Below are positions 42,098-50,482 of a stretch of DNA of 51,347 nt, piece by piece. Numbering within the stretch: position 1 is the first letter of the stretch; the number at the start of each line of letters is the position of its first letter. The position numbers were made by a program, and so were the translations under genes. Location of the stretch: contig CAJXLE010000003.1 of NCBI GenBank assembly GCA_913055895.1, positions 1 to 51,347 on the forward strand. The letters run 5' to 3'. This DNA is from an uncultured Bacteroidota bacterium. GTDB lineage: Bacteria > Bacteroidota > Bacteroidia > Bacteroidales > UBA12077. The notes beneath the pieces are model-generated. The model had not been told where the DNA came from and did no database searches. It saw nothing but the letters and a program-made list of their open reading frames with translations.

Positions 42098-43585
42098 TTA
42101 CAATTTCCATCCCTCCCGGTAGCTGTGTTTGATGTACCCTTTGGCAGCCTGGTGGGCGTTGATGGTTTTGTACTGCGTGTCGAAATGGGGATGGCCGTCG
42201 ATAACCTTGAACTCATCGGTGGTCACCACACGGATCTCGTCGTCGGGATCGATGTTTTTGAACTTCATGTTGGTGCCATCCCACAACAGCTCCCGCTTAA
42301 GGTCCTGCAGGCGTGTGGCCACAACCCCCATCAGCACCATCTCGGTGAGGGGACCTGCATAGTCGAAGTTGGAGCTGGGCATGGTTCTGTTGCCCGGGCT
42401 TTCTTTGCAGGCCCTGGCCCAGTCGCCTATATGGCCTTTCTCCACGCGCCGCAGCTGTTTGGCCGGTCGCCTGTACGATTTGTCATAGGAAAGGGGCAGC
42501 AGGAAGGGGTTGCGTCCGTAAGTGCCGCACATCAGCTTGCCCTTGGTGCCAACAAAAAGGCATCCCCCGTTGTGGTCGCGTCCCATGATCTCACCTTCAG
42601 GCAGCTCAGGCGGACGCTCAGGCAGCAGTCCACCGTCGTACCAGTTGACTTTCACCTCCGGCATGTTGACCTTGGGCATGTTGGCCCTGGCCGGGAACTT
42701 GTAGCGGACAATCTCCGATTGCGGGGGACTCTCCGTGTTGATGGGCGAGGAGGAAGCTTCCACGCTGGTGGGATACTGCAGCTTCAGGGCTTTGAAGATG
42801 GGGTCCATGATGTGACAGGCCATGTCGCCCAGGGCACCCGTGCCAAAGTCCCACCAACCCCGCCAGTTCCAGGGGTGGTATACTTCATTGTAGGGCCTGT
42901 AGCTGGCCGGTCCAATAAAAAGGTCCCACTTCAGGTGATCGGGCACCTCCATCTCCTTGCCGGGACGTTCCAGTCCCTGTGGCCATATGGGCCTGTTGGT
43001 CCAGGCATGGGCTTCGCGGACCTCCCCGATGGCCCCGTCCCATATCCATTCGCACACCTGGCGGATGCCTTCCCCGCTGTTGCCCTGGTTGCCCATCTGG
43101 GTGACCACGTTGTACCGCCGGGCTATCTCGGTCATCTGTCTTGACTCCCATACCGAATGTGTGAGCGGCTTTTCGCAATACACATGCTTGCCCATCTTCA
43201 TGGCATGGATGGAGATGATGGCATGGGTGTGGTCGGGAGTGCCCACCACCACCGCATCGATCTCGTCTCCCATCTCATCGAACATCTTACGCCAGTCGTA
43301 ATACTTCTTGGCGTTGGGATACTTCTCAAAGGTCGATTTGGCATATTTCCAGTCGACATCGCACAGGGCCACGATGTTTTCATTGGCGAGTCCTTCGAGT
43401 ACCCCGCCACCGCGACCTCCAACGCCAATGCCGGCAATGTTGAGTTTGTCGCTGGGGGGTGTGTGCCCCAACCCGCCCACCACGTGGTTGGGCAGGATGG
43501 TGATACCCGCTACCGCCGCCCCCGTGTTCTTAATGAAGGAGCGCCGGGTCATCTTGGAAGGTTTTCTGTTTTTCTCCATATCCAT
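42098..43585 (-). CDS. Tat-exported Gfo/Idh/MocA oxidoreductase
   Basis: TRRSFIK; GVGGRG, TPDHTH, CEKPLTH, GALGDMACH. Confidence 0.92.
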   Translation of the reverse strand: MDMEKNRKPSKMTRRSFIKNTGAAVAGITILPNHVVGGLGHTPPSDKLNIAGIGVGGRGGGVLEGLANENIVALCDVDWKYAKSTFEKYPNAKKYYDWRKMFDEMGDEIDAVVVGTPDHTHAIISIHAMKMGKHVYCEKPLTHSVWESRQMTEIARRYNVVTQMGNQGNSGEGIRQVCEWIWDGAIGEVREAHAWTNRPIWPQGLERPGKEMEVPDHLKWDLFIGPASYRPYNEVYHPWNWRGWWDFGTGALGDMACHIMDPIFKALKLQYPTSVEASSSPINTESPPQSEIVRYKFPARANMPKVNMPEVKVNWYDGGLLPERPPELPEGEIMGRDHNGGCLFVGTKGKLMCGTYGRNPFLLPLSYDKSYRRPAKQLRRVEKGHIGDWARACKESPGNRTMPSSNFDYAGPLTEMVLMGVVATRLQDLKRELLWDGTNMKFKNIDPDDEIRVVTTDEFKVIDGHPHFDTQYKTINAHQAAKGYIKHSYREGWKL

Positions 43586-43991
43586 GGTTTTGAAGTTTAT
43601 AATGGGATCTGCTTCATTTTTTTATCGGGCTGGTTGGGCCGCAATGATGAGAAGGAGTTGAGAGTTATGCCAACAATGGTTCGATGATGTGGGGCAGGCA
43701 GTTGAGCATACTGGAAATGCCCCAGGCAACGACAAGGTGTATGCTTTGTTAATGTCCTTTTAGCAAGCATTTTGTGTAGTTTGGCATGTAGGGTGTATGG
43801 CCGGGTTCCCATAATATGCTGGTTAGGGGCAATATACAAAAACTGTAGCTTAATACCAACAGAATACGGGATATATCAACCACATTTATTTTGATGGCTT
43901 CATCGGCCGGCCCGGGCAGTCATACCCACCGGCCGGCTTCATCACGGGGCATTGATCGAGGTGGAAGCCGTGGCTGCTGTGGCAGAATAGC

Positions 43992-45035
43992 CTATAAAAG
44001 CTCGATGTTGTTTTTCTCGCATGCCGCCCGCATCTCTTCGGGCCAGATGCCTGCCTGTACTTCCCCGATATGGGCTTTTTGCAGGTACTGCATGCACAGT
44101 CTCGACTGCCCGATGCCTCCACCCATGGTTTGTGGCAGCGATCCTTCCAGGAGCCTGGAGTGGAAATGCAGGTCTTTTCGTTCTTCCACCCCGCAAAGTT
44201 TGAGTTGTTGCTCCAGCGATTCAGGACTAACCCGTATACCCATGGAGGAGATTTCAAAAGCTTTTTTCAGCACCGGGTTCCAGACCAGTATGTCGCCGTT
44301 GAGACCCCTGTAACCGTTGATCGTGGGTGACGACCAGTCGTCATAGTCGGGGGCCCTCAAATCATGCGGCGTACCATCCATCAGGCTGTGGCCGATACCG
44401 ATCAAAAAGACTGCCCCATGTTCGCTGGCTATCAGGTCTTCACGTTGTCCGGGCGACCTGTCGGGGTATTTTTCCTGAAGCTCCTCGCTGTGTACGAAGG
44501 TGATCTTTTTGGGCAACACCGGGCGAATAACGGGTATGCGTTCGGTGATGGCCTGTTCGGTTTCCACCATGGCCTCATAGATTTTCTCCACCGTCTTTTT
44601 CAGCGTGTCCAGGTGGCGCTCGGAGCTGTCCAACACTTTCTCCCAGTCCCACTGGTCGACATACACCGAATGCAGGTTGTCGAGCTCCTCGTCGGGACGC
44701 AGGGCATTCATGTCGGTGTATATGCCCCCGACCTTTTCTCTGTCCAGCGTGGCCAGTTTCATGCGTTTCCACTTGGCCAGGCTCTGTACCACTTCTACCC
44801 GGCTTTTGTTGAGCGATCCAACCGGGAAACTGACCGGTTGTTCCACACCGTTTAAATCATCGTTGATGCCCGTTCCCGACAGCACCAGCATGGGTGCGGT
44901 GACACGCTGCAGGTCCAGTTTTTTGGCCAGGACCTTTTGAAATTCATCCTTGATGAACTTGATGGCCGACTCGGTGGCCTCCCGGGTGAGCATGTTCCGG
45001 TAATCGTGAGGAATGATGAGATTTTTCATGGTCAT
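43992..45035 (-). CDS. asnA: Aspartate--ammonia ligase (asparagine synthetase A)
   Basis: NDDLNGVE, VVQSLAKWKR, HSVYVDQWDWE, RAPDYDDW, GGGIGQSR. Confidence 0.97.
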   Translation of the reverse strand: MTMKNLIIPHDYRNMLTREATESAIKFIKDEFQKVLAKKLDLQRVTAPMLVLSGTGINDDLNGVEQPVSFPVGSLNKSRVEVVQSLAKWKRMKLATLDREKVGGIYTDMNALRPDEELDNLHSVYVDQWDWEKVLDSSERHLDTLKKTVEKIYEAMVETEQAITERIPVIRPVLPKKITFVHSEELQEKYPDRSPGQREDLIASEHGAVFLIGIGHSLMDGTPHDLRAPDYDDWSSPTINGYRGLNGDILVWNPVLKKAFEISSMGIRVSPESLEQQLKLCGVEERKDLHFHSRLLEGSLPQTMGGGIGQSRLCMQYLQKAHIGEVQAGIWPEEMRAACEKNNIELL

Positions 45036-45067
45036 TGATTTTTCATATTCAACTTACAATTTGCTTT

Positions 45068-45107
45068 AAAAAGAAAGGCCTTCTTCGGAAGTTACCGGAG
45101 AAGGCCT
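45068..45107 (-). terminator. Attenuator terminator 2 (asnA-proximal)
   Basis: Minus strand AGGCCTTCTCCGG-TAACTT-CCGAAGAAGGCCT-TTCTTTTT, ending about 30 nt before the asnA ATG. Confidence 0.85.
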
Positions 45108-45196
45108 GGCGGATTATAGCAACAAAAGACAACCTTCCCCGGTGGCGGGCGGTTGTTATTATTGTTGTTGTTATTGTTTTGAAGCCTGTATTCCAT
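45092..45196 (-). CDS. asnA leader peptide 2: MEYRLQNNNNNNNNNRPPPGKVVFCCYNPPGLLR
   Basis: Manual translation; 9 consecutive AAC/AAT codons; overlaps the antiterminator strand and the terminator 5' arm. Confidence 0.85.
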   Translation of the reverse strand: MEYRLQNNNNNNNNNRPPPGKVVFCCYNPPGLLR

Positions 45197-45217
45197 GATC
45201 ACAGCGGTTTTAAGCGC

Positions 45218-45251
45218 AAAAAAAAAGCCTTCCCTGATGGCAGGAAGGCTT
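45218..45251 (-). terminator. Attenuator terminator 1 (distal)
   Basis: Minus strand AAGCCTTCCTG-CCAT-CAGGGAAGGC followed by 9 T. Confidence 0.85.
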
Positions 45252-45273
45252 CGAATGCTTTTTGTGGTTATGG

Positions 45274-45363
45274 TTACAGCTCATCACAGCCTTCCTGCTC
45301 GTAGACGCGATTGTCGTTACGATTCAAATTGGAAGGGTTGTGATTGCTGACCAGGTACATCAT
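45274..45363 (-). CDS. asnA leader peptide 1: MMYLVSNHNPSNLNRNDNRVYEQEGCDEL
   Basis: Manual translation; 6 Asn in a 12-codon window; 3' part contains an 11-nt perfect complement of the terminator-1 5' arm. Confidence 0.75.
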   Translation of the reverse strand: MMYLVSNHNPSNLNRNDNRVYEQEGCDEL

Positions 45364-45450
45364 AGTCCGTAGAGTTCGGGTAACAATTATGCAGACAAGA
45401 AACAAATTATTTCATTACCATGCAAACCGTTGGTGGAAAAATTCAGGAAT

Positions 45451-45852
45451 TTAATCACTTCTCAGGTTCCTTTCGATGATGTCGTAAGGGATCTTGGTGT
45501 CGGAGTAAACCTGCCATTGGGCGATTTTTTCATTCTTCACCACGGCCTTCCAGGCGCAGGGCAGCTTCCAGGAATTGACCGTCTCTGAATTTTTTTGACT
45601 GCGGTAGGTTCCCGTGGCCCATCCAAAAAGACCTATCAGTTCTTCGTCTTCAATGATCTCGGTCACCTCAATGGTGTAATCGGGAAAGAAGTCGAAATAT
45701 CCCTTCCAGGCTTCCTTCATTTTGCTTTTTCCCACCACCTTTTTCCCGTGCGAATTGATAAAGGTGTGGTCGTCGGTTATCAAAGTCCCAATCTTTTTAA
45801 CCTGGTGGGCATTGATGGCCTTGACGAAATTCATGACTGTTTTAACGCTCAT
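45451..45852 (-). CDS. SnoaL/NTF2-like protein
   Basis: FVKAINAH, DDHTF, W.GYF..FPDY, WQVYSD. Confidence 0.8.
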   Translation of the reverse strand: MSVKTVMNFVKAINAHQVKKIGTLITDDHTFINSHGKKVVGKSKMKEAWKGYFDFFPDYTIEVTEIIEDEELIGLFGWATGTYRSQKNSETVNSWKLPCAWKAVVKNEKIAQWQVYSDTKIPYDIIERNLRSD

Positions 45853-46131: not shown

Positions 46132-46439
46132 GTGCTTGTGCTGTTGATTTTAAAAGTAAGACCTTTCTCTTTCGCCGCTCCAAATTTATAAATTTAGGGA
46201 AAAGCCAGAGAAAAGCAAAAATCTTTAGTGCTTTATTCTTCCCGGGGTGTTTTGTTGGAGTCCTTGTTTATCAGGATCTTATGATGGTATAATGTTTTTT
46301 GCCCTGTGGATTTTGCTGAGGAATTGTCATTATTTATTGATAGGATCATTTTTTAATTGATTGGGTGGGCGAAGGACCATCCCGGCAAGCAGGTAAAATC
46401 AACTGTTTGGCAGTTTTATACGATTATTTTTTATTTATT

Positions 46440-46635
46440 ATTTGGCCGTATGGAACCTGCATGAATAATCGTGTCCTTGAGCGTAGGTTACTGGATGCAG
46501 GTTTCACAAGTTTATTTTTTTTGTTACTTTGTCACGGACGTTTCATACGGTTATCATTTATTTAATAATTTGGCCGTATGGAACCTGCATGAATAATCAT
46601 GTCCTTGTTGTGTAGGTTGCTGGATACAGGTTTCA
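46440..46635 (+). repeat. Two ~67-nt direct repeats, each forming a hairpin
   Basis: Copies at 46440-46506 and 46568-46635: ATTTGGCCGTATGGAACCTGCATGAATAATC...TAGGTT(A/G)CTGGAT(G/A)CAGGTTTCA. Confidence 0.9.
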
Positions 46636-46666: not shown

Positions 46667-49600
46667 ATGAAATATTTGACTATTGCCGCATGTGCAGCCT
46701 TGATGCTTGCTGCTTCAACACTGTCGGGCCAGCCCGAGCGCGATTACGACCTGACACAAGACAAGGTGCTTTACCTGGTGGGCTATGCGCACCTGGATAC
46801 CGAGTGGCGATGGGACTATCCCACCACCATCAATGAGTACCTGAAGAATACCCTGGATGAGAATTTTGAGCTCTTTGAGAAGTATCCGGAGTACGTGTTC
46901 AATTTTACCGGCTCGCGCCGCTATCGAATGATGCGAGAATATTATCCCGAACGCTATGACAAACTCAAGGACTACATCGACAAAGGGCGCTGGCTTGTTT
47001 CCGGCTCATCAGTGGACGAGGGGGACGTGAATGCACCTTCACCGGAGACTGTCATCCGCCAGGTGCTCTATGGCAACCAGTATTTTCGTGAGGAGTTTGG
47101 TAAGGAAAGCGTGGATTACATGTTGCCCGACTGTTTTGGTTTCCAGGCGCACCTTCCTTCGGTATGGGCCCATGCCGGCATCAAGGGTTTCTCCACCCAG
47201 AAGCTGAAATGGGGCTCGGCCGCAGGTGTGCCTTTCAATGTTGGTTTGTGGGAAGGTCCCGACGGGGAGTCGGTGATCATGGTCAACAGCATACGCGACT
47301 ATGGCGGGGGGGGGGGGCCCCGGGTTGACACCTCTGAATTTTTCAGCCATTACCTGGAGAAGGTGGGGGATAAGTACGGTTTTTACGGGGGATACACCTA
47401 TTATGGCGTCGGAGATATCGGGGGTTCACCCCGCGAGGAAGATGTACGTCACATGGTCAACTCCCTGGACCATCCCGACAGCAAGGTAAAGGTTATACCT
47501 GCGGCCAGCGACAGGTTGTATAAGGATATCACACCTGCCCTGCGCGACAGCCTGCCCGTGTACCGGGGCGACTTTCTGCTCACCGAGCACTCGGCGGCCT
47601 CCATCACCTCACAGGCCTATCTCAAGAGATGGAACAGGAAAAACGAAAAGCTGGCCCAGTCGGCCGAGCTGTCGGCCGTGATGGCCGACTGGCTGGGTGG
47701 CGCCGACTATCCCTTTGATAAACTTTACGATTCATGGGAGCTGGTCCTGGGCAGCCAGATGCACGACATCATACCGGGCACCAGCATTCCCTCGGCCAAC
47801 CATTATGCCTGGAACGATGAGGTGATTGCCATGAACGGCTTTGCTGCCGTGGAGAAATATTCCACCGGCGCCGTTTCCCGGGCACTCAACACCCAGGTGG
47901 AAGGCGAACCGGTGGTGGTCTACAATCCCGTATCGCGCAAGAGACAGGATGTGGTGGAGGCTACCCTGCCGGAAACTCGATACGATCAGGTGGCCGTTTA
48001 TGGTCCCGATGGCCGGAAAGTGCCCTCCCAGGTGGTGGATGCCAAGGATGGCCAGACGCGGGTGCTTTTCCTGGCCGAGGTGCCCTCCGCCGGTTATGCC
48101 GTTTATGATGTGCGTGGCGGGGAAGAGCCTGCCGGGGGCGACCGGCTGGAGGTGACCCGCAGCACACTGGAAAATGGCCGCTACAAGGTGGCGCTCAATG
48201 ACAACGGCGATGTTGCTTCGGTCTATGACAAGAAGCTGGAACGCGAGCTGTTGAAATCACCTGCCAGGCTTGCCCTGCTGAAAGCCAACCCCCGCATGTG
48301 GCCCGCCTGGAACATGTCGTGGCGCGAACGCATCCGTGGGCCCTACGCATATGTCAGCGACACACCCCAAATACGTATCAAGGAGGACGGTCCCGTACGT
48401 GTCTCCCTGGAGGTCACCCGCCAGAGCCACGGCTCCACCTTCCGGCAGACCATCAGCCTGGCCGCCGGTGATGCCGGAAAAAGGCTGATGTTCGACAACA
48501 AGGTGGAGTGGAAGACCAAAGGAACAACCCTGAAGGCGGTCTTTCCCCTGAGCCCTTACAATTTCAATGCCCGCTACAACCTGGGACTGGGCACCATCCA
48601 ACGGCCCAACAACCACTCACGCAAGTACGAGGTGCCCTCGCGCGAGTGGATCGACCTGACCGACACCAGCGGTACCTATGGTGTTTCGGTACTCGACGAC
48701 TGTAAGCACGGCTCCGACAAGCCCGACGGGCATACCCTGCGACTGACCCTCCTGCATACGCCCATAGCCAATACCTACCACGACCAGGCCACCCAGGATT
48801 TTGGCACCCACCGCTTCACCTATGCCCTCTATGGACACCAGGGCGACTGGAATGAAGGCAGGACCGAATGGCAGGGACTCTACGTCAACCAGCCCCTCCA
48901 GGCCTATCATGTAGACAAGCACCCGGGTCAGATGGGACAGACCTTTTCTTTTGCCAGCCTGAACACCGATGATATAGCCATACGGGCCATCAAGAAAGCC
49001 GAAGACGACCAGTCTTATATTCTCCGTCTGCAGGAACTTTCCGGAGATCAAACCAGTGGTGTGGTGGTTGACCTGGGACCCGACATCCGCTCAGCTGTCG
49101 AGGTTGACGGCCAGGAGCGCCGGGTTGGGGATGTGGCGACCCGCCAGGGCAACCTGCACCTGGATTTCGGAGGTTACGACATCCGCAGCATCTCGGTCAG
49201 ACTTGAAGAACCCGCCGAAGAAGTGGAAGGACCGCGACAGCAGCCGGTGGAGCTGCCCTTTAACATCGATGTGGTATCGGCCGACGACAACCGCGATGAT
49301 GGTGCCATCGACGATTCGGGCCGCACTTACCCGGCCAACATGCTCGATGGGCACATCCGCAACGACGCCCTGGTTTATCAAATGGGAAGTCGTGAAGATG
49401 GCGAAATGAACGCCCTGCAATGCCGGGGGCAGGAGATCACCCTCCCCGAAGGCGACTACAGCAAGGTGTACCTGCTGGCGGCTGCCAGGGAGAGCACCAA
49501 CGCTTCCTTCTCCTGTGGGGGCAATACGGAGGAGTTTTCCATCCAGCCCTGGACCGGCTTTGTGGGTCAGTGGGACAAGCGGGTGTTTGCCTCGAAGGAT

Positions 49601-50482
49601 CAGCGACACGTTAAAAGGGTCAGACCCGGCTTCATCAAGCGCGACGAGATAGCCTGGTTTGCCTCCCACCACCACCGGCCCGACAAGAACGTGGCATACC
49701 AGTACTCCTACATGTTCCAGTATGAGATGGACCTGCCGGAAGGAGCACAGACCCTCACCCTGCCTGAGAACAGTGATGTGATGGTTTTTGCCGTGACCGT
49801 GGCCGATAATCCCAGCGACCGGGCCAGGCCCATGACACCGCTGTACGACGAGCTGTCCGGGCGCGAAGGTTTCGACCTGCCGGAAACATCCTATTACGGC
49901 AAGGGGATGGAGCCCTATGCCCGGATAGAGAAGACGCAAAAGAGCGACCCGGAGAAGATCTTCTCCCAGATATCTGAAGAGGATTATGCCAACCTCTCTT
50001 CATTGAACGGGGTGAACATGACCTATTACCCCGAGGGGGAAGCCTACACCAAGGCATCGGTCAGGGGTGAGAAGATCCTCCTGCAGGACAATTTCGACGG
50101 GTCGGGCATGAGCCTGGGGCAGTTTGATGAGATCATGTGGTACGACAACGGCGAGGGGAGGTACGTGATGGACCTGCAGCAGCCTGTTGCGCTCGACAGC
50201 ATACGCACCTATTCGCCTGTCTTTTCCCATTATGGCATACCTGTGTACACTGTCTGGGGCACCAACCAGGCAGATCCCTCCGTCAGTGGCAACCCTGCCG
50301 ATAAGGGATGGACCTACCTGGGTGCCAACCGTACAGGCGAGGTCTGGGGCAAAGCCTGGAACCGCACCACCCTCAGGATGCCTTCCGACAGCAAACCCTT
50401 CCGCCACATCATGTGGGTGGCCGACAAAAACTGGCATGGCACCCACTATTTCTTCGAGGTGGATGTGTTTGAAAAACCTTAA
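46667..50482 (+). CDS. Secreted GH38 alpha-mannosidase
   Basis: GYAHLDTEWRW, YMLPDCFG (nucleophile Asp), QMHDIIPGTS, LTLLHTP. Confidence 0.92.
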   Translation: MKYLTIAACAALMLAASTLSGQPERDYDLTQDKVLYLVGYAHLDTEWRWDYPTTINEYLKNTLDENFELFEKYPEYVFNFTGSRRYRMMREYYPERYDKLKDYIDKGRWLVSGSSVDEGDVNAPSPETVIRQVLYGNQYFREEFGKESVDYMLPDCFGFQAHLPSVWAHAGIKGFSTQKLKWGSAAGVPFNVGLWEGPDGESVIMVNSIRDYGGGGGPRVDTSEFFSHYLEKVGDKYGFYGGYTYYGVGDIGGSPREEDVRHMVNSLDHPDSKVKVIPAASDRLYKDITPALRDSLPVYRGDFLLTEHSAASITSQAYLKRWNRKNEKLAQSAELSAVMADWLGGADYPFDKLYDSWELVLGSQMHDIIPGTSIPSANHYAWNDEVIAMNGFAAVEKYSTGAVSRALNTQVEGEPVVVYNPVSRKRQDVVEATLPETRYDQVAVYGPDGRKVPSQVVDAKDGQTRVLFLAEVPSAGYAVYDVRGGEEPAGGDRLEVTRSTLENGRYKVALNDNGDVASVYDKKLERELLKSPARLALLKANPRMWPAWNMSWRERIRGPYAYVSDTPQIRIKEDGPVRVSLEVTRQSHGSTFRQTISLAAGDAGKRLMFDNKVEWKTKGTTLKAVFPLSPYNFNARYNLGLGTIQRPNNHSRKYEVPSREWIDLTDTSGTYGVSVLDDCKHGSDKPDGHTLRLTLLHTPIANTYHDQATQDFGTHRFTYALYGHQGDWNEGRTEWQGLYVNQPLQAYHVDKHPGQMGQTFSFASLNTDDIAIRAIKKAEDDQSYILRLQELSGDQTSGVVVDLGPDIRSAVEVDGQERRVGDVATRQGNLHLDFGGYDIRSISVRLEEPAEEVEGPRQQPVELPFNIDVVSADDNRDDGAIDDSGRTYPANMLDGHIRNDALVYQMGSREDGEMNALQCRGQEITLPEGDYSKVYLLAAARESTNASFSCGGNTEEFSIQPWTGFVGQWDKRVFASKDQRHVKRVRPGFIKRDEIAWFASHHHRPDKNVAYQYSYMFQYEMDLPEGAQTLTLPENSDVMVFAVTVADNPSDRARPMTPLYDELSGREGFDLPETSYYGKGMEPYARIEKTQKSDPEKIFSQISEEDYANLSSLNGVNMTYYPEGEAYTKASVRGEKILLQDNFDGSGMSLGQFDEIMWYDNGEGRYVMDLQQPVALDSIRTYSPVFSHYGIPVYTVWGTNQADPSVSGNPADKGWTYLGANRTGEVWGKAWNRTTLRMPSDSKPFRHIMWVADKNWHGTHYFFEVDVFEKP
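47306..47317 (+). repeat. G12 homopolymer inside the GH38 gene
   Basis: GGC GGG GGG GGG GGG CCC encodes GGGGGP in frame. Confidence 0.85.

Follow-up and report, generated by a model that had tools for sequence, protein, structure and literature searches.

Ribosome-mediated attenuation by leader peptides has been described for only a few amino acids, mostly in Proteobacteria, and the aspartate--ammonia ligase gene asnA is known to be controlled by other means, namely by the activator AsnC in Escherichia coli and by asparagine (Asn) T-boxes in some Firmicutes. Sensors arranged in series before a single gene are also known, in the form of same-ligand tandem riboswitches and of the triple T-box of Bacillus subtilis thrZ. 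Here we describe the region upstream of asnA on contig CAJXLE010000003.1 of an uncultured Bacteroidota bacterium, which we analysed within a stretch of 51,347 nt (the window); all coordinates are positions in the window, and the whole leader together with its gene was analysed on the minus strand (45426-43992), on which the features described below lie unless stated otherwise. Two short Asn-rich open reading frames (ORFs), each followed by a hairpin and a U-tract, stand in series 5′ of asnA, and we consider it probable (roughly 0.8) that they belong to two serial, ribosome-mediated transcription attenuators that sense Asn-tRNA. Asn-sensing ribosomal attenuators in series had been proposed from the letters of the window alone (hereafter the sequence-only reading), and this is the interpretation best supported by our analysis, given the equivalog-level identity of asnA, the conservation of the leader with this gene, the complementarity of the antiterminator strands, and the lack of a match to a known RNA family.

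The gene downstream of the leader (43992-45035) matches the TIGR00669 equivalog (E 2.8e-123, 411 bits against a cut-off of 292.8), which confirms that it is asnA. It begins 33 nt past the second terminator, and its true start may be at 45029, since its relatives begin at the equivalent of MKNLIIP. Leader ORF 1 (45363-45274; ATG at 45363, a second ATG at 45360, TAA at 45276-45274) has 29 codons with six dispersed Asn codons (MMYLVSNHNPSNLNRNDNRVYEQEGCDEL). The antiterminator strand of this unit, region 2 (GCAGGAAGGCT, 45298-45288), ends 11 nt before the stop codon of leader 1 and is the exact 11-nt reverse complement of AGCCTTCCTGC (45250-45240) in the 5′ arm of terminator 1 (regions 3 and 4; 45252-45218), which consists of a hairpin at 45252-45224, with 11 pairs in the terminator scan, and of U9 at 45226-45218. 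Leader ORF 2 (45196-45092; ATG at 45196, TAA at 45094-45092 in the loop of terminator 2) has 34 codons and reads MEYRLQ-N9-RPPPGKVVFCCYNPPGLLR. Its nine consecutive Asn codons, the (AAY)9 run at 45178-45152, are followed by RPPPG, and the Pro-Pro-Pro-Gly codons (45148-45137), immediately 3′ of the run, overlap region 2 of unit 2 (ACCGGGGAAGGTTG, 45143-45130). The core of this strand (CCGGGGAAGG, 45142-45133) forms ten base pairs, including a single G-U, with the 5′ arm of the second hairpin. Terminator 2 (45107-45068) has its 5′ arm at 45107-45095 and its 3′ arm at 45088-45076, followed by TTTCTTTTT (the tract may also be given as UUUCUUUUU) down to 45068. All coordinates and complementarities of the sequence-only reading, including both antiterminator pairings, were found to be exact to the base when checked on the minus strand.

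In this genome, the end of terminator 1 and the ATG of leader 2 are 21 nt apart. As the sequence-only reading had proposed to check by folding, both terminator hairpins are present in the minimum free energy (MFE) structure of the 381-nt leader, which folds with z = -4.2 relative to 100 shuffles. Upstream of leader 1 lies a promoter-like block (45426-45396), consisting of TTTG (45426-45423), a 20-nt spacer and TTTCTTG (45402-45396), which we take to match the Bacteroidota -33/-7 consensus; about 330 nt of leader lie between this block and asnA. The genome also encodes an asparaginyl-tRNA synthetase (AsnRS), above the profile cut-off, and a tRNA-Asn(GTT), which decodes AAC as well as AAU (22 tRNAs were found in the draft assembly), so that free Asn would set the signal. 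Two asnB-like genes were considered as additional targets and rejected, as both lie inside operons with coding sequence directly upstream and no Asn leader.

The pairing potential of each unit was assessed sequence by sequence, by comparing the best upstream complement of the terminator 5′ arm with that found in 200 dinucleotide-preserving shuffles. Region 2 of unit 1 in this genome forms a duplex of -15.9 kcal/mol with the 5′ arm of the terminator 1 hairpin (itself -14.9 kcal/mol), and none of the 200 shuffles was as good. The same strand (consensus GGAAGGCT) is found just 3′ of the Asn codons in all 16 aligned sequences, with at most 1/200 shuffles as good in each and with duplex energies from -10 to -18 kcal/mol. 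Relative to the 3′ end of region 2, the unit-1 stop codon is at -12 to +11 nt in all 16 sequences and, since it adjoins region 2, a ribosome terminating there would cover this strand. The sequence-only reading had named three of the four regions of a classic attenuator; the missing one, region 1 (CCCTTCC at 45337-45331; AGCCTTC in the alignment), is complementary to region 2 and lies inside the span of Asn codons in 16/16, and its pairing is matched by at most 11/200 shuffles in 12 of the 16 sequences only. RNAalifold, run on the unit-1 alignment alone, returned the terminator together with the 1:2 helix (columns 27-32 with 73-78). In the MAFFT alignment of unit 1, 91.9% of the cells of the antiterminator are paired (34-67% with a slid partner), and the corresponding value for the terminator is 94.5%, the slid-partner range over both helices being 32-76%.

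We further folded the leader while keeping 28 consecutive nt single-stranded in place of a ribosome. In the free RNA, the 1:2 helix and the terminator form; with the ribosome on the third Asn codon, the unit-1 antiterminator forms even at full length; and with the ribosome at the unit-1 stop, the terminator forms. In these models, unit 1 is a complete trp-type attenuator with alternative 1:2, 2:3, and 3:4 pairings.

Unit 2 of this genome has the strongest antiterminator of all, with a duplex of -20.7 kcal/mol between region 2 and the 5′ arm of terminator 2 (0/200 shuffles as good). Among the 18 unit-2 sequences compared, which include the single Asn leader of L016, at most 5/200 shuffles were as good in 16, the exceptions being L008 (49) and L107 (9). 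The terminator 2 hairpin (-19.8 kcal/mol) was not listed by the simple terminator scan because its stem contains an internal mismatch. The unit-2 stems vary by lineage and region 2 follows them: CCGGGGAAGG is found with CCTTCCCCGG in one genus and CAGAGAAGG with CCTTCTCTG in the other, and L014 and L016 have further sequences. RNAalifold likewise identified one antiterminator pair of unit 2 that is GC in eight sequences and AU in seven. Covariation by columns was otherwise set aside for this unit, since MAFFT places the terminators of the two genera (g1 and g2) one column out of register, and we therefore relied on the per-sequence duplex searches. With the ribosome held on the Asn codons of unit 2, the antiterminator forms in the nascent RNA before region 4 exists. 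In 16/18, the position of the unit-2 stop codon relative to the 3′ end of region 2 is -12 to +4 nt.

Both units are conserved with asnA in the family, although the gene itself is patchy, being present in 23 of 56 family genomes and in 22 of the 401 genomes of a class-wide sample. We compared the upstream regions of 21 family loci, leaving out L017 and L110, in which the 5′ end of the gene is missing. Both units are present in 16 of the 21 (L001-L003, L005-L008, L014, L015, L103, L105-L109, and L111), and L102, at a contig edge, retains terminator 1 and unit 2. A single unit was found in L016 and, within the 247 nt available, in L104, and L004 and L101 were cut too short to judge. The leader-bearing asnA genes span two genera of strongly different base composition, with 52-58% identity between their AsnA proteins. 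Sequences 5′ of the promoter block differ among groups of loci while the leader stays with asnA, suggesting that the leader belongs to asnA rather than to the neighbouring gene. The Asn-rich ORF of unit 1 has homologs in 16/16 aligned relatives (Asn at 115 of 401 codons), and homologs of the unit-2 ORF, with 5-9 Asn codons, occur at 17 family loci; Asn makes up 126 of the 376 codons of the unit-2 leaders. Synonymous changes are more frequent in the leader frame than in the other two frames, both in unit 1 (0.26 vs. 0.12 and 0.18) and in unit 2 (0.38 vs. 0.19 and 0.09), and this excess indirectly points to translation of the leaders. In L111 (genome G070), asnA is split by a stop into two pieces (L111/L112) and the unit-2 ORF ends after four codons of the Asn frame; in this single case, the gene and its sensor may be decaying together.

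The promoter-like block is also conserved, with an exact TTTG-N19-21-TAnnTTTG located 25-35 nt 5′ of the leader-1 ATG in 9 of 15 relatives. The gap between terminator 1 and the leader-2 ATG is 7-21 nt in 14 of 15 relatives, which is too short for a separate promoter, so that unit 2 would be reached only through read-through of unit 1; judging from this spacing, both units presumably lie on one transcript.

Asn leaders are not confined to this family. We found none at five loci from other families of the same order. Among the best 80 of 599 candidate loci (55-64% identity), four were flagged, including tandem Asn units in a Flavobacteriales metagenome-assembled genome (MAG; L061) and one Asn unit in a Marinifilaceae MAG (L081). 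A contig labelled as an Anaerolineales MAG (L082), flagged in the same sample, carries an N7 leader ORF and a terminator before asnA, in a context with a sigma-70-like promoter and a Shine-Dalgarno sequence before asnA that is not Bacteroidota-like, which suggests either an independent invention or the transfer of an Asn leader outside the phylum. The fourth, L056, was rejected, as its Asn-rich ORF is followed by a hairpin without a U-tract. In a class-wide sample of 22 loci, four have Asn leaders, tandem in L159 and L163, whose second units read NNNQNQNRPPPEG and NENNNKAPPQGG, and single in L161 and L162; none was found at the 12 loci of this sample that belong to the same order. L156, with an Asn cluster in a 47-codon ORF about 300 nt upstream and no adjacent terminator seen, was not taken as a leader, and L168 was flagged and likewise not accepted. 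The layout is seen in three distant families of the class, in addition to the Flavobacteriales MAG. In each of ten units from other lineages, region 2 follows the Asn cluster at a distance of 4-18 nt, despite different stem sequences, with at most 1/200 shuffles as good in six of the ten and at most 18/200 in all ten. Judged by this distribution, the Asn-leader element appears to be old, or mobile together with asnA, and to have been lost often.

From the sequence elements, their conservation, the complementarities, and the alternative folds, we infer that the leaders are translated, that the leading ribosome is coupled to RNA polymerase, that the response is to Asn, and that the two units act multiplicatively. 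Transcription would start about 15-20 nt before leader 1, as placed by the promoter-like block. When Asn is plentiful, a ribosome on leader 1 would reach the stop codon and cover region 2, so that terminator 1 folds and the transcript ends at about 45218. When Asn-tRNA is scarce, the ribosome would stall on the Asn codons and cover region 1, leaving region 2 to pair with region 3, and the polymerase would read through; if leader 1 is untranslated, regions 1 and 2 would pair and the terminator would form. A second ribosome would then load on leader 2 after terminator 1, and the test would be repeated on nine Asn codons, where a stall would expose ACCGGGGAAGGTTG (45143-45130), which would then tie up the 5′ arm of terminator 2, and where a ribosome that does not stall would move onto region 2, with terminator 2 forming and the transcript ending at 45068. 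Each unit would be a race between ribosome and polymerase, as region 2 must capture region 3 before region 4 is made. A full-length asnA mRNA would require two “shortage” verdicts, so that read-through would be the product of two probabilities, and, by analogy with tandem riboswitches, two units would give a lower basal level and a steeper response than one.

Several observations weigh against this scheme. The sequence-only reading had suggested aligning asnA upstream regions and looking for conserved Asn codons and covarying stems; the Asn codons and the complementarity of the stems are indeed conserved, but covariation of the stems is modest. In unit 1, double-sided changes are seen at just two of the ten antiterminator pairs and one of the eight terminator pairs, in three sequences that are close kin, and the covariation score was equalled in 7/500 shuffles for the antiterminator and in 70/500 for the terminator. 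One unit-1 position has changed in all three strands (C/G/C to U/A/U), again in three closely related sequences, and probably in a single event. The case for unit 1, as read from the alignment, therefore appears to rest more on conserved complementarity among kin than on covariation. Two copies lack an intact leader ORF: the unit of L104 has no in-frame ATG, and the unit-2 ORF of L111 is truncated. The -7-like element of this genome (TTTCTTG) is a variant of the consensus, and it is possible that transcription starts inside the leader. The 23 public sequencing runs listed are all DNA contig sets, with fewer than half of the sampled words, and none is an RNA run.

Further points of this kind concern unit 2. 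Its full-length MFE structure keeps the terminator even with a stalled ribosome, and the switch would thus have to be kinetic. No consistent region 1 was identified among the 18 unit-2 sequences. The Asn run paired with the unit-2 spacer was tried as region 1 and rejected (0/500 shuffles in L003 and at most 26/500 in 5/18, absent elsewhere), as were the Pro codons as an RNA-level region 1, which are frequently the best complement of region 2 and never better than in shuffles. The sequence-only reading did not mention that the unit-2 ORF of this genome, like that of its closest relative L002, lacks the stop codon present in other relatives and runs for 12 further codons to a stop that lies in the terminator 2 loop, 36 nt past region 2. 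In masked folding, a ribosome at this stop opens the 5′ arm of terminator 2; according to this model, a ribosome that keeps pace with the polymerase could melt terminator 2 and cause read-through when Asn is plentiful.

Alternatively, only unit 1 may sense Asn in this genome, with unit 2 being a pyrBI-like coupling sensor or a decaying copy that lowers basal expression. A stop 36 nt past region 2 (window and L002), compared with -12 to +4 nt in 16/18, a terminator 2 that cannot fold with a ribosome at that stop, and a unit without a significant region 1 all fit this alternative, and ribosomes reading into the pyrL terminator suppress it, as far as the available part of that report describes (PMC5021804). 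Nevertheless, unit 2 of this genome has both the longest Asn run and the strongest region 2, neither of which fits decay. The run-through geometry also recurs in the distant loci L159 and L163 and is thus probably tolerated or used, and all four run-through leaders carry Pro-Pro(-Pro) on region 2, which could hold the ribosome back. Overall, we regard a unit 2 that does not sense Asn as unlikely.

Two serial Asn-tRNA sensors would be easier to reconcile with the run-through leader if these prolines act as a brake. Peptide-bond formation is slowed by consecutive prolines. Pro-Pro occurs within five codons after the Asn run in 14 of 21 unit-2-type leaders, the other seven having a single Pro or none, and the third bases vary (CCG CCA CCG, CCT CCT CCG, CCT CCT CCA, and CCA CCT CCG). 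When a polyproline stretch was engineered 5′ of the pyrL terminator, an unrelieved stall led to more termination, according to the portion of that study available (Elgamal and Ibba, 2016; PMC5021804). It is conceivable, with the odds somewhat against it, that polyproline in leader 2 parks the ribosome on region 2 and so takes the place of the stop codon. The lineages concerned are few and related, and the C-rich segment beside a G-rich strand may have a cause at the RNA level. If the brake is real, it would explain how leader 2 can enter its own terminator without abolishing termination, and it would make asnA expression depend not only on Asn-tRNA but also on the capacity for translation elongation.

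Besides asnA, the his operon and one aro operon of this genome have the tandem layout; these leaders, too, were absent from the sequence-only reading. On contig C67 (minus strand, 9206-9141 and 8904-8815; L121), two His-rich ORFs (MISNKHHIVRHHDHHHRRAAR and MIQTTVHTVHHHHHHHVYASMMRKGCSMP), each with a terminator, precede hisG-hisD. Among 30 hisG loci of the family, 25 have two His-rich upstream ORFs, four have one, and one has none. On contig C29 (minus strand, about 20791-20500; in L147, 1712-1792 and an ORF ending at 1587), two Tyr-rich ORFs, each with a terminator, read …MYYYRMG… and …SYRYGYYYYYYGR (YYY and YYYYYY) and precede a 3-deoxy-D-arabino-heptulosonate 7-phosphate (DAHP) synthase gene with a chorismate-mutase domain (E 4e-63, yet below the curated cut-off). 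Of 30 related DAHP synthase loci, the seven closest orthologues have Tyr ORFs (two in six, one in one) and the 23 others have none. A WWW leader and a strong terminator precede trpB (TIGR00263, 532 bits) on contig C51 (minus strand, about 10320-10160; L148), and short CCCCTTAGCGG-like repeats lie between this terminator and trpB. At gathering thresholds, the his, aro, and trp leaders have no Rfam match, including to His_leader for the his leader. That “ask twice” attenuation is general in this lineage (asnA, his, and one aro gene) and is combined with RPPPG as a brake on the antiterminator strand that is sensitive to elongation factor P (EF-P) is a doubtful idea as it stands, which we raise only tentatively. 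If it is true, it would imply that transcription and translation are tightly coupled in a phylum whose translation initiation does not involve Shine-Dalgarno pairing.

In each of these leaders the amino acid matches the pathway, as is characteristic of ribosome-mediated attenuation; this match speaks against an RNA-binding factor specific for AAY repeats. According to this second alternative, the leaders are untranslated, and the AAY stretches are bound by a protein or a tRNA, in a TRAP-, PyrR-, or T-box-like manner, to control the terminators. Triplet repeats can serve as protein-binding sites, e.g., for TRAP, a PyrR model of Rfam matches below threshold (18.3 bits against a gathering score of 54), and the evidence for translation of the leaders is indirect. 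An Rfam scan of 44900-45600 with E up to 10, however, gave no match reaching the gathering score (Phe_leader 19.6 bits vs. 55, Thr_leader 14.1 vs. 55) and no T-box match at all, and L001 had no match at gathering thresholds. All 36 family and distant units included in the structural analyses have an ORF from ATG to stop that contains the Asn codons; the two further unit-2 copies without such an ORF are those of L104, with no in-frame ATG, and of L111, with an early stop beside a broken asnA. In addition, the position of the stop codon tracks region 2, synonymous changes are enriched in the leader frame, and a single RNA-binding factor would not explain the pathway-matching codons of the His, Tyr, and Trp leaders. 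Together, these points make control of untranslated leaders by a bound factor very improbable.

The Asn codons of the leaders are also exceptional in the genome. The (AAY)9 run is the only run of at least six AAY triplets on both strands of the 3,299,865-base genome, in which there are two runs of at least five. Against a background of 4.6% Asn codons in long ORFs, the probability of at least 6 Asn in 28 codons (leader 1) is about 1.5e-3 and that of at least 10 in 34 codons (leader 2) about 2e-6. When the whole genome was scanned for short ORFs that are rich in a given amino acid and precede a terminator, a strict terminator definition gave leader 1 as the single Asn match, and a looser scan gave only leader 2; the looser scan was too noisy for other amino acids, and only its Asn and His rows were used. 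That the hairpins are merely terminators of the SnoaL-like gene located upstream on the same strand as asnA (45852-45451), with accidental Asn-rich ORFs behind them, is hardly credible, even though no other terminator precedes 45252 and terminator 1 may also end transcripts of this gene, as the units stay with asnA where the upstream sequence differs, the Asn run is unique in the genome, a promoter-like block separates the SnoaL-like gene from leader 1, and the same arrangement occurs in independent lineages.

Two other features of the window were noted. Downstream of asnA, past a gap of 406 nt (43586-43991), lies a glycoside 3-dehydrogenase gene of the BT_2158 family (42098-43585, minus strand; NF058561, 824 bits against a cut-off of 750), whose product has a twin-arginine-like N-terminus (MTRRSFIKNTGAAVAG). 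On the plus strand, 46402-46635 is an imperfect direct duplication with a period of about 128 nt, in which blocks of 51 nt and 24 nt are 90-92% identical; it is intergenic, just 5′ of a 1271-codon ORF (46667-50482), and each copy contains a promoter-like TTGGCC...AATAAT.

If the proposed mechanism holds, the Asn leader represents a new amino-acid specificity for leader-peptide attenuation and, next to AsnC and T-boxes, a third and unrelated way of controlling asnA. The arrangement of two units in series, which one family has for Asn, His, and Tyr, could be used to ask in a natural setting whether serial ribosome-based sensors multiply their read-through probabilities, as has been proposed for tandem riboswitches. 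To our knowledge, transcription-translation coupling has hardly been studied in Bacteroidota, in which translation initiation is unusual; since the mechanism needs a ribosome close behind the polymerase, its presence would argue for coupling in this phylum. The polyproline on the antiterminator strand would link EF-P-dependent pausing and attenuation, and compact amino-acid-responsive leaders of this kind might also serve as sensors in Bacteroidota.

In agreement with the sequence-only reading, which knew of no characterized Asn leader-peptide attenuator and of no tandem one, neither an asparagine leader peptide nor same-signal tandem leader peptides were found in the full-text literature searched, in which most subscription journals were not covered. 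Transcriptomes of Bacteroides thetaiotaomicron and Flavobacterium psychrophilum revealed candidate leader peptides before amino-acid operons, with asparagine unnamed in the portions of these reports available (PMC7366714, PMC9723704). A model of leader-peptide attenuation has been presented by Elf and Ehrenberg (2005; PMC1183508, of which an excerpt was available).

The closest described systems are the trp, his, thr, leu, phe, and ilv attenuators of Proteobacteria, which likewise have an ORF enriched in codons for the end product, together with an intrinsic terminator and an antiterminator that excludes it and is covered when the ribosome is at the stop codon; their 1:2 helix has a predicted counterpart in unit 1 of asnA. 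The asnA leader differs from them in that asparagine would be sensed, in having two complete units in series, in its Bacteroidota host, and in lacking similarity to the leader models of Rfam. With regard to the known control of asnA, the enzyme and the signal (asparagine supply) are the same, whereas AsnC is a DNA-binding protein and the T-box an RNA sensor, neither being a leader peptide. Tandem riboswitches and T-boxes resemble the asnA leader in being serial sensors that control terminators, and the rationale for same-ligand tandems, a tighter off state and a steeper response, would be the same; their sensors, however, are aptamers or tRNA-binding RNAs, while in the asnA leader the sensor would be the translating ribosome. 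In B. clausii metE, the tandem riboswitches respond to S-adenosylmethionine (SAM) and B12 (cited in PMC3641672, seen in part).

The pyrL polyproline reporter, as described in the part of the study available (PMC5021804), resembles leader 2 in placing polyproline upstream of an intrinsic terminator, as PPPG precedes terminator 2. It was engineered and was used in E. coli without EF-P, whereas the asnA motif is natural, conserved, and located on the antiterminator strand. Finally, the Salmonella mgtCBR leader, which its authors called a singular example in the available part of their paper (Lee and Groisman, 2012; PMC3641672), also contains two short ORFs that each control elongation, and its mgtP senses charged tRNA through proline codons. 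According to the same source, the mgtCBR leader integrates two signals (ATP and Pro-tRNA) additively and without intrinsic terminators, whereas the two asnA units carry the same codons, each with its own hairpin and U-tract.

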